This document shows positions 6,001 through 9,000 of a stretch of 64,000 nucleotides of DNA, one piece after another. Origin of the DNA: a virus (taxonomy: Duplodnaviria > Heunggongvirae > Uroviricota > Caudoviricetes). The position numbers are program-made. The DNA is taken from the IMG/VR virus record IMGVR_UViG_2718218100_000003; one strand, 5' to 3'. Numbering within the stretch: position 1 is the first letter of the stretch; each line of letters opens with the position of its first letter.

Positions 6001-9000
6001 TCAACGTTGTCAGTGTTATTACTTCTGCTCTCATTGCTGGTTTGCGTTTGCATTGTAAGACCACTCGTGATGGGGTTGGCCTGTGTAGTTTGTCGGAGCT
6101 AATCGCCTCCTGACTTTGCAGGTTTGCGCGACGAGCTCTACGGCGAGAAGCTGCGGTGCCTTTAAATTCTGTTTTTCTGGACATAGATTCCTCCCGAATA
6201 AACTTTGGCGATGCAATCTCGAAGCTCCTCCTGAGACGGTTGCTTCGGCATTGCATCCCACAGCTTATGTGGTTGGGTGATCTGGCTTTTCAGCCACGTA
6301 GTCGAGAGTCGACGTTGTTTAAAGAGCCTGCCAGTCTGTTCCATTTGGCTTCCAGCGTCCTGCTGATGGTTAAATAGTACGATATGTACTTAACTTGGTC
6401 AATACAATTTGTTCTAAAATGGGGCGTTTTTTTACAACGCTTTGTATTTAATAGTATTGTTTTTTAGCGTGGGTGTATTGCCTCGGCGATGTAAGGAGAG
6501 ATCAGAATTGCGTTGTTTAGTGAGTTGTATCTATTTATTTTCCAATAAATACAATTGGTTATGTGTTTTTTTGGGCGAGAGGAAAAGAAAACCCGGCATG
6601 GAGGCCGGGTTGATGATTAGCGGTGTGGCCTTGAGCGATAATGCTCACACACATGTTCAAGATTTCCATGCCTTATCCGTTCATAGGCATTCACATGAAC
6701 TTCTCGATCGAATTGGTCATTCAAATTGTATGTAGACATCTGTGTTTTCTCATATTGGCGGCAGCCCTACAACCGCTTGAAAAAATGTACCAGACGCGCT
6801 AAGGTTACATCGCAAATATTGTGTACCTTAACAAGGGCTCCTTTTGGAGGCTCTGGTTAAACAGCATCAATGTCGGACTGGGGAGTTGGACATTGTGCTG
6901 AATGCTTTTGCATTATTGAGGCCGAACGTAAACCTTCAGAATTGAAGAGATGCGTTCGGCTTCTTCGTTTGTGATATCGTTAGGAATGCCTTTAATCGTT
7001 ACTGTAACCCCTGATTCAGGTCGAAGAACTACTGGAAGATCATAGGTATGAAGTGCATTAGCCTTGCCTTCGACTTTTGTTGGTTCGCCAGTCAAATCTT
7101 TTTCCTCACTGGATTCTTTGTCAATCGGAGTGTATGGGATTTCTTCACCAGACTGGAAAGCTACAAACTTTTTGATTGCACTTTCCATGCGGCTTTTATA
7201 TGCAGTAATGCTGCTGTCGCTAGGCTTCGGCTCAGTTGCGTTGATGTATCGCTCGGCAAGCTCATTCACATCAAGCTGAGTAACATCACCCATTTCCTCT
7301 TCTTGGACTACCGTTAAGAGGCGAGCGGATGAGTTTTTTAAATTTCGAGCGGTGGCCTCCTTCATTATGTTCAGCGACATAAGCTCTTCAAGGAAGTCCT
7401 TGAATGCCTGCACGCTAACGTTTGACTTTGCCATTTGCTCTCTCTCTAAGTTATTGACTCAGATCGAGTTTATCCAGGAATTGATTTGCATGCAAGACTC
7501 AAGTCTTGAGAATTTCCGTTCAAGATCCACTCTCAATAAAAAAGGCCGCACCTCTGCGACCTTTCATCTCCTAAATCTCTTTTCTCTTACCTAAAGAAAC
7601 AGCAGGCTGGGTCAGCCCTAACAACTTCAAGTGCATCGGTCAGAGAAAGCTCCGTGCTATACAGGTGTTATTTCATATCTTTTTGCATCCAATAAATTTT
7701 CCATCTGTCCAGAGAGCGGATGCACTTGATTCTTGTTGATGGCAGGACGTTTTTTCACCTGCCTCACCCTGCCATACAGGACGCTGCTCACCGATATCTA
7801 TCGTCCGGTCATTGATGTTATAGACAATATCCAGATCATTACGGATATACTCAGATGGCCTTATGCTTTCAATGAATAGATGAACTTCTTTTTGACCGCT
7901 TGATACTCATGGCCATTAAACTCCATCTATCCTCTTTACCCAAACGTCTCTTCAGGCCATTGGCTGGCGATAACTTTCCCCACAACGGAACAACTCTCAT
8001 TGCATGGGATCATTGGATATTGCGGGTTTAGTGGTTGTAGAAACACCTGACCGCTATCCCTGATCAGTTTCTTGAAGGTAAATTCATCACCACCAAGTCT
8101 GGCTATGCAGAAATCGCCGGGCTCAACAGCTTGCTCAGGGTCAACCAGAATTAACATCCCGTCAGGAAAACTAGGTTTGGAACCTGTTGGTGCGGTCATT
8201 GAGTTACCTTCAACCTCAAGCCAGAATGCAGAGTCACTGGCTTTTTTGGTTGTGCTTACCAATCTCTCCGCATCACCTTTGGTAAAGGTTCTGAGTTCTG
8301 GAGAGAACATCCCAGCCTGAACATGAGAAAAAACAGGGTACTCATATTGTTTTTTAACTGGGGCCGATGAGTATTCGCCAACAGGTGAAAATGTCCCGTC
8401 GTGGTTGAATGATATGTTATCAATACCAAGGTATTTAAACACCACACCAATATCACTAAGAGATGGATGACGAGATCCGCGCAACCAGTGTCCAATTCCA
8501 CCCTGCGTCATACCTAGCTCTTCGGCTAACTTCTCTTGAGTTATGCCGAGCTCTTTCATTCTGGATCTAGCCAGTTCATACCATTTCATTTTCATGTCCT
8601 TATTATTACGCTCTGTACTGGAACCATCCATGCACAATGTGTATTTTTACTTGTATTTGAGAAGTACATATTGTATTTTTTTATTCATGGTTACTATGGA
8701 GGGCATATGAGCAACCTACGAAAATATCGAGAGTCACTGAATATCTCTCAAACAACACTTGCTAAGGCAGTTGGATGCACACAGGGAGCTATCGGACATT
8801 GGGAATCTGGTCGTCGCTTCCCAGACCTTAAAACATGCCGTGCTCTTGTTGCGTGTCTAAACAAGTTAGGCGCAAAAGTAAGTCTTGATGACGTGTTCCC
8901 GCCGGAGCACAAAGCCGCTTAATAAGCGGAGCCGCTCTTTGTAACAACGGACATTCGTCCTACGTCGCTGAAAAGCGAGTCCCAAGATATCTGACCAACT

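Follow-up and report, generated by a model that had tools for sequence, protein, structure and literature searches.

A mobile cassette beside the cI repressor of Stx2a phages joins a protein with a tyrosine-recombinase core-binding fold to a pseudoknotted RNA and a miniprotein

Introduction

Several phages carry accessory genes or regulatory RNAs close to the repressor that maintains lysogeny. In phage lambda, rexA and rexB occupy the interval downstream of cI and upstream of the terminator preceding OL/pL, and they are co-transcribed with cI. RexA is a sensor and RexB is a four-helix membrane channel. In the immI regions of P1 (c4 RNA-icd-ant) and P22 (mnt-arc-ant, with sar RNA), which are secondary immunity modules, a small ORF or an antirepressor is kept silent in the lysogen by a structured RNA, a dedicated repressor or both. 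The c4 RNA of P1 precedes icd-ant, and loss of the silencer in either region induces the prophage. The gene for BstA is located downstream of a repressor locus. BstA has been published as a repressor-linked prophage defense protein (PMC8585504).

The locus described here lies in a window of 64 kb (the whole stretch of viral DNA that was analyzed), which belongs to a VT2-Sakai/Sp5-type Stx2a phage. A sequence-only reading of its cI-N interval had reported a single, self-contained 173-aa gene of no recognizable family in the position of rexAB and had proposed it as a superinfection-exclusion or abortive-infection determinant. The ORF is indeed present, but it is not the only feature in the interval, which also contains a conserved 40-aa ORF and a structured RNA of 173 nt.

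A terminator-bounded cassette in the cI-N slot

The features of the interval are as follows, with the 173-aa ORF termed gene X.

5912-6187: N, identified by its N_peptide domain
6579-6611, minus strand: downstream intrinsic terminator (tImm analogue) and left-hand cassette boundary, from a terminator fold and the terminator annotation in AP000422
6617-6739, minus strand: miniprotein gene H0092, encoding 40 aa, basic and His/Cys-rich (MSTYNLNDQFDREVHVNAYERIRHGNLEHVCEHYRSRPHR); PHROG 21154
6740-6912, minus strand: structured RNA of 173 nt between X and the miniprotein gene, from RNAfold and covariation
6913-7434, minus strand: gene X (H0093, ECs1184 or Sp5 ORF23, "hypothetical protein"), 173 aa with an ATG start
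7467-7495, minus strand: sigma-70-type promoter read from sequence, with TTGCAT (7495-7490), a 17-nt spacer and TAAACT (7472-7467)
7486-7495: second palindrome, TTGCATGCAA, abutting the one at 7493-7508
7493-7508, no strand assigned: perfect palindrome CAAGACT-TG-AGTCTTG, overlapping the -35 hexamer
7535-7565, minus strand: upstream intrinsic terminator AAAGGUCGCA-GAGG-UGCGGCCUUUUUU, folded by RNAfold as an 11-bp stem followed by a U-run
7936-8598: cI, identified by its S24 peptidase and HTH domains

The cassette (6579-7565, minus strand) shares with rexA-rexB its place between cI and the terminator that precedes OL/pL, and it is likewise a two-gene unit expressed or expressible in the lysogen. 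In other respects the two differ. No RexA or RexB homology was found for X or H0092 in PADLOC, Pfam or PHROG, there is no similarity of fold, and no membrane protein is encoded (neither product has a hydrophobic segment by reading). The cassette adds a structured RNA, and its second gene specifies only 40 aa. In contrast to rexAB, it has its own promoter and is insulated from pRM by a terminator. That terminator, at 7535-7565, ends the cI/pseudo-DUF3024 transcript and forms the right-hand cassette boundary; a decayed DUF3024 gene fills the 375 nt separating cI from the cassette. Both flanking terminators had been predicted from the sequence and both fold as such. The sequence of the upstream one is kept ahead of Proteus and Serratia homologues.

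In other E. coli prophages, the same slot holds rexB, a DUF1828 operon or an NYN gene, and the left flank of the cassette adjoins rexB directly. These arrangements support the earlier view of the cI-N location, part of the immC region, as a genuine variable-cargo slot in lambdoid prophages. The cassette itself, which had not been described before, is exchanged between phages with different cI and N genes, with breakpoints at both terminators. Homology to one Salmonella locus (L040) begins at 7562 and ends at 6581, and homology to another locus (L088) stops at 7541 and resumes at 6611. Identical flanks can hold divergent X alleles (100% and 40% identity). Because it has a promoter and two terminators, is exchanged as a block at those terminators and has alternative cargo in its slot, the cassette qualifies as a moron in the sense of Juhala and Hendrix, an autonomous promoter-gene-terminator unit that is inserted between conserved phage genes and is present or absent among relatives.

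The promoter hexamers proposed earlier are found exactly as given. They match only 7 of 12 consensus positions, which is why the element falls below the threshold of the promoter scanner. Its conserved position among relatives makes it credible: at the equal position, the hexamers are identical in Salmonella, TTGCAA-17-TAGAAT in Proteus and TTGACT-17-AAAAAT in Serratia. The ribosome-binding site of X, previously called good, is a GAGAGAGAG run that is adequate and not strong.

The palindrome over the -35 hexamer is perfect and is the only copy in the 64-kb window, even with up to 3 mismatches allowed. By our own calculation, about four perfect 7+7 palindromes of one given spacing are expected per 64 kb by chance, so this one is meaningful only by its placement and conservation. 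Salmonella L040 has an identical copy, L039 has AAGACT-T-AGTCTT, and the Proteus version is imperfect. In distant clades, inverted repeats of 10-13 bp flank the -35 hexamer, and both of their arms change together. The palindrome is a candidate operator for autoregulation. The thought that X might be a second repressor of lytic genes was dropped because the phage carries a single copy of this element. A further property of the upstream regions is their content of GATC, which over 44 distinct regions of the X family reaches 1.95 per 110 nt against a background of 0.38, an enrichment of about fivefold. In the window, CGATC (7466-7462), which includes a Dam site, directly follows the TAAACT of the promoter.

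Gene X encodes a recombinase-type core-binding fold without a catalytic domain

X does belong to a recognizable family, contrary to the first description. It matches PHROG 2602 (E 3.5e-102), and its relatives form at least 651 clusters at 50% identity. The protein has three parts.

Residues 1-95: four-helix core-binding (SAM-like) domain of the tyrosine-recombinase type
Residues 96-129: variable acidic linker
Residues 130-173: novel domain of a beta-hairpin plus a helix

The N-terminal fold resembles the core-binding (CB) domains of lambda Int, XerD, IntI4 and XerH, at a sequence identity of just 4-16%. The PF00589 catalytic domain, with its R-K-H-R-H/W-Y residues, is lacking in X, whose chain stops at residue 173. 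Searches of X against Pfam, NCBIfam and PADLOC gave no match above threshold, a sequence search of the PDB returned noise only, and a Foldseek search of the PDB and BFVD with a high-confidence model returned nothing at E <= 0.001. The 45-aa C-terminal module has no match in the PDB or BFVD. Among recombinase-derived proteins, the lysogeny repressors MrpR (SPbeta) and SroF (phi3T) offer the closest comparison. X differs from these and from the tyrosine recombinases in having the CB domain alone, with the linker and the beta-hairpin-helix module in place of a catalytic-type domain. The X family, itself previously undescribed, takes over the core-binding domain of the tyrosine recombinases and no other part of them.

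Judged from its modeled fold, and with no membrane segment, enzyme domain or effector domain, X resembles a DNA-binding regulator more than it does an exclusion effector. Its C-terminal domain probably mediates oligomerization. A 1-nt deletion in an A-run in three viral contigs (L096-L098) truncates X and leaves the miniprotein intact; the deletion, if real, would imply that the C-terminal domain is dispensable.

ECs1184 was recovered by RNA-interactome capture (TRAPP) in EHEC Sakai at an FDR of 0.065 and gave weak labeling in an RNA cross-link PNK assay, and uninduced cultures of this strain seem to have yielded the native protein (PMC7618764). A single phenotype has been published: attempts to delete ORF23 from an Sp5 lysogen did not succeed, with no cause stated, and deletion of ORF21 failed likewise (PMC5155283). 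Non-deletability is atypical for a simple exclusion gene and points to a neutralizing or repressing role.

These data bear on the proposal that X alone is a superinfection-exclusion or abortive-infection effector in the rexAB slot. The variable cargo of that slot (rexB, the NYN gene, the DUF1828 operon), the moron architecture with its horizontal exchange and divergent alleles between identical flanks, the apparent detection of the native protein (PMC7618764) and the precedent of BstA (PMC8585504) all suit the proposal. We nevertheless consider it improbable, given a fold that is a DNA-binding module, the missing effector-type domain, membrane segment and PADLOC match, and the fact that X never occurs alone in Enterobacterales. 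In addition, defense genes can normally be deleted, whereas ORF23 could not (PMC5155283).

A DNA-binding fold and apparent expression in the lysogen (PMC7618764) would also fit a lysogenic-conversion regulator, in which X acts as a transcription factor or nucleoid-associated protein on host genes and the miniprotein and RNA are accessory. Homologues in Wenzhouxiangella adjoin housekeeping-type genes, at the same position in two assemblies, and because the palindrome has no second copy in the phage, other targets of X would have to be in the host. This reading names no known host target and leaves both the obligate RNA-miniprotein linkage and the failed deletion unexplained, and we think it has little chance of being correct. 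Less probable still is a role as a recombination modulator, with X serving as a decoy on core-type sites of Int/Xer to stabilize the prophage or block the integration of competitors. The resemblance to the CB domains of integrases and Xer proteins prompts the idea, as does the label "site-specific recombinase XerD" that one source gives to a family member, but the very low identity to those domains argues against it, most loci are unlinked to int/xis or attachment sites, and the RNA and miniprotein are given no role.

The leader RNA and its miniproteins

All X loci in Enterobacterales have a miniprotein ORF 147-204 nt downstream together with a structured RNA. A search seeded from one miniprotein family (type B) found X about 155 nt upstream in 32 of 32 loci, most of them on contigs already found through X.

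In the window, the RNA has a hairpin (P1) and a long-range helix (P2), inside which lies a long hairpin ending in UAGCG. The loop of a further hairpin, P5, situated shortly before the miniprotein start, is engaged in a pseudoknot. Its stability is high (RNAfold z -4.08, with 0 of 200 shuffles equally stable), and in the MFE fold the AUG of H0092 is paired with upstream sequence. In the alignment of type-2 RNAs, 92.6% of cells are paired, compared with at most 46% when the alignment is slid, and compensatory changes occur at 10 pairs. Type-1 RNAs (19 sequences) have an equal architecture with 59 compensatory cells, a value that 0 of 500 shuffles reach. The fold is assigned to the sense strand because of its G-U pairs. 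No Rfam family was found at the gathering score in seven loci, nor at E <= 1 in positions 5500-9500 of the window. This pseudoknotted, covariation-supported RNA is previously undescribed and lies outside Rfam. Because the type-1 covariance model misses the RNA of the window, and matches the type-3 RNA only marginally, the case for treating the RNA types as equivalent is built on their architecture and on short motifs; sequence-level homology between them is not established. The known Sp5 sRNAs AsxR and AgvB were considered as identities for the RNA and are located elsewhere, near PR'/stx.

The current Sakai RefSeq annotation no longer includes H0092, and a homologue search returned 3 near-identical proteins. 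Downstream of X homologues that are only 35-77% identical, H0092 is kept at 50-95% amino acid identity. It is restricted to some clades and so was rejected as a constant partner of X; elsewhere, two other miniprotein families replace it at an equal distance. The three families (types A, B and C) comprise proteins of 40-61 aa that are basic, hydrophilic and Cys/His-rich. They are mostly missed by annotation pipelines and have not been described before. Family scans matched them only to PHROGs with no assigned function and to no toxin family, with one sub-threshold treble-clef zinc-finger match for type C. PADLOC-DB v2 gave 0 families at E <= 1 for X, for H0092 and for a 44-aa ORF at 7657-7791.

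In several respects, the cassette recalls type II toxin-antitoxin systems. It is mobile, its second gene is small, X is reportedly non-deletable, and X would resemble an autoregulating antitoxin in its build, with an apparent N-terminal DNA-binding domain joined by a flexible stretch to a small C-terminal part. It differs in that its genes are 147-204 nt apart, with a structured RNA between them, and do not overlap, and in the very small size of a second product that falls in no toxin family. Nor do the two proteins form matched pairs. X, RNA type and miniprotein type assort independently, and near-identical C-terminal domains of X are paired with miniproteins of types A, B and C (L040, L004 and L039). 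Because this domain does not co-vary with miniprotein type, a specific antitoxin-toxin protein contact is disfavored. The cassette also lacks the marks of a type I system, since no hydrophobic toxin is encoded and the leader has no called antisense promoter; by reading, the only antisense hexamers are a weak TTGAAA-17-TAAGGT (6776-6804) that the scanner does not call.

Its layout offers an analogy to pseudoknotted leaders that act as translational operators, such as those of T4 gene 32 and of the ribosomal-protein S15 and alpha operons. In each case a pseudoknot lies immediately 5' of a start codon, and what is encoded downstream of the cassette pseudoknot is a small, basic protein that probably binds nucleic acid. 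The sequences are unrelated, and the analogy is one of layout only.

The comparison with P1 and P22 immI leads to the main rival of the reading that we favor. In this rival, the miniprotein inactivates a repressor or triggers lytic growth, X and the leader RNA silence the miniprotein, and loss of X results in induction and cell death. The position adjoining cI in lambdoid prophages agrees with such antirepressor control, as do the Arc/Mnt-like and Bro-N/Ant-like genes beside the cassette in P22-like prophages (seen in ORF translations of L012 and L060) and the resemblance of a structured RNA ahead of a small ORF to c4-icd. However, the cassette is not homologous to c4, Icd, Ant, Mnt or Arc, has a different gene order and contains no antirepressor-sized gene. 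C4 antisense RNA was not found by Rfam in the seven loci or in positions 5500-9500 of the window, and X lacks any ribbon-helix-helix or HTH similarity that would relate it to Mnt, Arc or C1. Far from any repressor, some loci are placed between tail genes and lipoprotein morons. The same cassette occurs beside cI alleles that are unrelated to each other, and its three miniprotein types, which look unrelated, are freely exchanged, so an antirepressor of this kind would need very broad specificity. We judge antirepressor control to be unlikely.

A proposed mechanism

Our tentative preference is for an autoregulated, lysogen-expressed module in which X restrains a translationally gated and harmful miniprotein in an addiction or abortive-infection manner. 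The cassette would be transcribed from its own promoter in the lysogen, with X as the first gene product, a cytoplasmic protein carrying the DNA-binding CB domain. X would most likely bind the inverted repeats over its own -35 hexamer and keep the cassette low and steady. The transcript would run on through the pseudoknotted leader, which may gate expression of the miniprotein, the putative effector. When X is removed, control would be lost and the miniprotein would harm the cell or destabilize the prophage. Such a release of a harmful miniprotein would explain the failed deletion of ORF23. The benefit to the phage may be exclusion of competitors or stabilization of the prophage.

A number of observations weigh against this module and explain our caution. 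The failed deletion is a negative result; its cause was not stated, and ORF21 behaved likewise. Independent assortment of the three components and the truncated X beside an intact miniprotein in L096-L098 do not sit easily with a restrained toxin; the hydrophilic character of the miniprotein sets it apart from classical type I toxins; and PADLOC has no match for X or H0092. Distant X homologues (Wenzhouxiangella and Fibrobacterales) occur in other contexts and lack both the miniprotein and the GATC enrichment, and the window's RNA escapes the type-1 covariance model.

A more elaborate form of the same idea is doubtful. In this form, a tripartite prophage system would be made up of a DNA-binding protein derived from a recombinase but catalytically "headless", a dedicated pseudoknotted RNA of some 150-175 nt and a miniprotein effector that resembles a zinc finger and is interchangeable. 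It would sense a cue linked to a phage or to replication, possibly the Dam methylation state of its GATC-rich promoter, whereupon the miniprotein would be set free and would abort infection or switch the prophage. If true, such a system would stand outside the known toxin-antitoxin types and defense systems, and its RNA would be a new regulatory family.

If the cassette is an addiction or abortive-infection device, it would represent a new architecture for prophage-encoded immunity. Treating the interval as a cassette would also make the unexplained failure to delete ORF23 from Sp5 testable. The cassette adjoins the repressor in the Stx2a phages of greatest clinical importance and may affect the stability of the toxin prophage and hence Stx2 release. 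Among 5,426 complete E. coli genomes, 220 carry the interval in full.

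A terminator-bounded cassette between cI and N

The model that we tentatively regard as best supported is that the 173-aa gene (hereafter X) belongs to an autoregulated, toxin-like cassette with a gated effector. X would be its DNA-binding regulator, and a structured spacer RNA would gate translation of a miniprotein that would act as effector and would be harmful if expressed unrestrained. This model joins a regulator-like fold, conserved operator-like repeats, an elaborate leader, interchangeable small effectors and a failed deletion of X. The relevant features of the window are as follows.

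5912-6187, - strand: N
about 6290-6450, no strand given: nutL/pL/OL
6579-6611, - strand: terminator on the N side of the cassette, canonical hairpin then U-run
6617-6739, - strand: H0092, 40-aa ORF (BAA94120 in AP000422)
6913-7434, - strand: X, 173-aa ORF (H0093 in AP000422; ECs_1184 in Sakai; ORF23 of Sp5)
7535-7565, - strand: terminator on the cI side of the cassette, canonical hairpin then U-run
7593-7926, - strand: decayed DUF3024 gene
7936-8598, - strand: cI
8708-8922, + strand: cro
9064-9360, + strand: cII

Over 6400-7950, the window matches VT2-Sakai/Sp5 and numerous other Stx2a and Stx1 phages at 99.9-100% identity, and the whole interval occurs in 220 of the 5,426 complete E. coli genomes searched. 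The sole existing annotation of X is "hypothetical protein". The sequence-only reading had placed X in a cargo slot flanked by two terminators. Both terminators fold as predicted, and the slot genuinely holds varied cargo, since the same pL-side flank accompanies rexB, a DUF1828 two-gene operon or an NYN-domain gene in other E. coli prophages. The cassette is mobile. L088, a prophage sharing the DUF3024-side and N-side flanks, is homologous to the window at 7963-7541 and 6611-5848 with no homology between, where it holds an X allele of 40% identity. A Salmonella phage whose cI and N are unrelated to those of the window is homologous to it only at 7562-6581. The breakpoints thus fall at the two terminators, and the interval originally proposed (6576-7561) marks the limits of the cassette almost exactly.

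Beyond the cI-N slot, the cassette is found between tail genes and lipoprotein morons, in nin-type regions, and beside Arc/Mnt- and Ant-like genes. In P22-like prophages it adjoins Arc/Mnt-like ribbon-helix-helix and Bro-N/Ant-like antirepressor genes and so lies beside an immI-type region (L012, 1915-2355 and 688-1638; L060, 6282-6662 and 6893-7828), as identified from ORF translations alone.

The "intergenic" stretch separating cI from the cassette is itself a DUF3024 gene in decay, carrying two frameshifts and a single in-frame stop. Its protein is 81-85% identical to that of the 113-aa DUF3024 gene found intact after cI in the related prophages L076 and L088, and also in Proteus. DUF3024 is often cI-adjacent (about 229 E. 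coli genomes).

Miniprotein partners of X

X had been described as a lone, self-contained gene. This description does not hold, because a small ORF lies 3' of X in every enterobacterial locus and a structured RNA fills the spacer. The proposal from the same reading that X is a single-protein exclusion factor we consider quite improbable. A comparison of the regions 3' of X homologues, covering 99 loci drawn from both genomes and viral contigs, placed the start of the small ORF 147-204 nt past the X stop codon in every enterobacterial locus, and three families of these ORFs could be distinguished.

Type A: 40-45 aa, PHROG 21154, includes H0092 of the window
Type B: 56-61 aa, PHROG 33859
Type C: 47 aa, CxxC...CGC motifs, treble-clef zinc-finger match below threshold

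Family scans returned no known function for type A, B or C. In a search seeded with the type B miniprotein, an X homologue ends ~155 nt upstream in 32 of 32 viral loci, most of these contigs having already been found via X. H0092-type proteins keep 50-56% identity where X falls to only 35-41%, which argues that the ORF is translated. H0092 is missing from the current RefSeq Sakai record, in which ECs_5705 is directly followed by ECs_1184, though it is conserved across genera.

X clade, RNA type and miniprotein type vary independently of one another (combinations 1B, 1C, 2A, 2C, 3A and 3C are all found), and nearly identical X C-terminal domains are paired with all three miniprotein types. This absence of co-variation between X and miniprotein type speaks against the gated-effector model, as does the hydrophilic character of the miniproteins. 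A further point against it comes from three contigs in which X is frameshifted and the miniprotein intact, unless the frameshift is a homopolymer sequencing error.

In these contigs (L096, L097 and L098; about 5320 in each), a 1-nt deletion in the linker A-run cuts X to 121 aa and removes its C-terminal domain. All three loci share 99.4-99.7% identity with L076, and the truncation may be either such an error or a true loss or phase-type variant.

A structured RNA in the spacer

The spacer of the window (6740-6912) is much more stable than shuffled sequence (z -4.08). Three types of spacer can be told apart by sequence. In the most frequent one, represented by 19 distinct sequences, RNAalifold predicts a hairpin immediately past the X stop codon and a domain that a long-range helix closes and that has conserved UAGCGGAUCC at its end. 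A structure built by hand includes two further elements, an internal hairpin and a pseudoknot formed with the loop of the last hairpin. In this structure, which was derived from the same sequences, 93.2% of cells are paired versus 36-44% with partners slid, and two-sided changes occur in 16 pairs (59 cells), values reached by none of 500 shuffles. Invariant G-U pairs assign the fold to the mRNA strand.

The type present in the window (7 sequences) has the same architecture, with 92.6% of cells paired versus at most 46% when slid, again in a structure derived from the same sequences. Compensatory changes occur in 10 pairs, and the long-range helix appears as CUGUAACC/GGUUACAG, CCAGA/UCUGG and CCAUAACC/GGUUCUGG. 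Because the type-1 covariance model does not detect the RNA of the window, the types are tied by layout and short motifs (UAGCG, UCAAG) rather than by demonstrable sequence homology. The spacer RNA had no match in Rfam. The known Sp5 sRNAs AsxR and AgvB are located elsewhere in Sp5.

The tip of the first hairpin is inverted among relatives, being CAACTCCCCAGTC in the window (6868-6901) and GGACTGGGGAGTTG in Salmonella (L040, 5532-5570) and other loci (compared also at L092, 5584-5617). The stem is retained, and the change looks like a palindrome-mediated flip of the tip.

Within the first ~25 nt past the X stop codon in L076-type loci, the first hairpin of the type-3 spacer has the form of a canonical terminator, U-run included (AGCCCCG...CGGGGCUUUUU), so miniprotein expression may rely on read-through or attenuation in some variants. 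The first hairpin of types 1 and 2 has no proper U-run.

A predicted DNA-binding domain without a catalytic partner

X matches PHROG 2602 (function unknown) over its full length (E 3.5e-102), and nothing in Pfam, NCBIfam or PADLOC passed threshold. A word-indexed search gave 44 clusters, all from Enterobacterales, and a full profile search (E <= 0.001) gave at least 651 representative relatives; almost all of 150 relatives among the matches listed are 157-208 aa long. An AlphaFold2 model built on a 150-sequence alignment (pLDDT 86.9) has N-terminal helices at 8-21, 26-40, 56-66 and 73-94. These are followed by an acidic, low-confidence linker (about 95-129), variable in length and sequence across the family, and by a confident C-terminal part with a beta-hairpin (130-138, 143-151) and a helix (156-168).

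Because a catalytic domain is absent and searches of PDB and BFVD gave no significant match for the C-terminal module, X is predicted to be a "headless" recombinase-type DNA-binding domain fused to a new small domain. Judging from known complexes of DNA with core-binding (CB) domains, the (nearly) invariant motifs ATARN on helix 2 and YKSR on helix 4 would sit at DNA-contact positions.

Promoter and operator-like repeats

The promoter hexamers previously proposed (TTGCAT, 7495-7490; TAAACT, 7472-7467; 17-nt spacer) and the perfect palindrome at 7493-7508 are indeed present. Only 7 of 12 hexamer positions match consensus, which is why a consensus scanner does not call the promoter. Hexamers lie equally far from the X start codon in Salmonella (identical), Proteus (TTGCAA-17-TAGAAT) and Serratia (TTGACT-17-AAAAAT), and because this distance is kept we accept the pair as the likely promoter of X.

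The Sp5-type clade carries AAGACT-N1-2-AGTCTT over the -35 and CGATC after the -10. In distant clades, the -35 is flanked by 10-13-bp inverted repeats with a CGATC core, whose outer arms co-change (for example, GGATTCATCGATC with GATCGATGAATCC, and TAGGCCGATC with GATCGGTCTA). The Dam site GATC is ~5-fold enriched in the 110 nt 5' of X (1.95 versus 0.38 per 110 nt; 44 distinct upstream regions), often as CGATCG within covarying inverted repeats around the -35. Sites in the window lie at 7462-7466 and 7524-7527, and a conserved GGATCC also occurs in the DNA coding for the spacer RNA. This enrichment may mean that expression responds to Dam or SeqA, or that an epigenetic switch operates here. 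Since the palindrome has no second copy elsewhere in the phage, the sole phage target of X, if X binds it, would be its own promoter.

Published experiments and possible functions

Mondal et al. made 43 in-frame Sp5 deletions in K-12 and could not delete ORF23 (ECs1184, which is X) or ORF21 (ECs1180); they viewed these deletions as apparently lethal and the genes as probably required for stable lysogeny (PMC5155283). As support for the gated-effector model, the failed deletion of X is weakened by being a negative result. ORF21 is an 83-aa ORF at 5602-5853 (- strand), just downstream of N, and its deletion failure is unexplained, since transcription from pL only, if that is the case, should leave it unexpressed in a lysogen.

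An RNA-interactome study of EHEC Sakai included ECs1184 just below significant enrichment (FDR 0.065), and the plasmid-expressed tagged protein gave near-background labelling in an RNA cross-link assay (PMC7618764). We read the capture as indicating that native X is made in uninduced cultures; X would be at best a weak general RNA binder. A literature search found no further functional study of X.

Candidate pay-offs of the cassette are abortive infection or exclusion, prophage addiction, and induction control. The last of these, an antirepressor variant in which the cassette controls prophage induction, we judge unlikely. The X gene has long been deposited and was flagged once as non-deletable, while the cassette architecture, CB-domain assignment, RNA and miniprotein families are apparently undescribed in the libraries searched. 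By function, we file the cassette as a variant of prophage moron or addiction-type modules. That it is a categorically new system seems somewhat unlikely, and is entertained because its parts belong to no known family.

Relatives outside the prophage cassette

Distant X homologues with 24-27% identity occur in Wenzhouxiangella (L017, L019) and Fibrobacterales (L018), in other contexts that have neither the miniprotein nor GATC enrichment, so the X family is wider than the prophage cassette. Those in Wenzhouxiangella adjoin housekeeping-type genes (one of them RimK-like, judged from ORFs), the position being shared by two assemblies, and the same 127-aa ORF is called 3' of the homologue in both loci.
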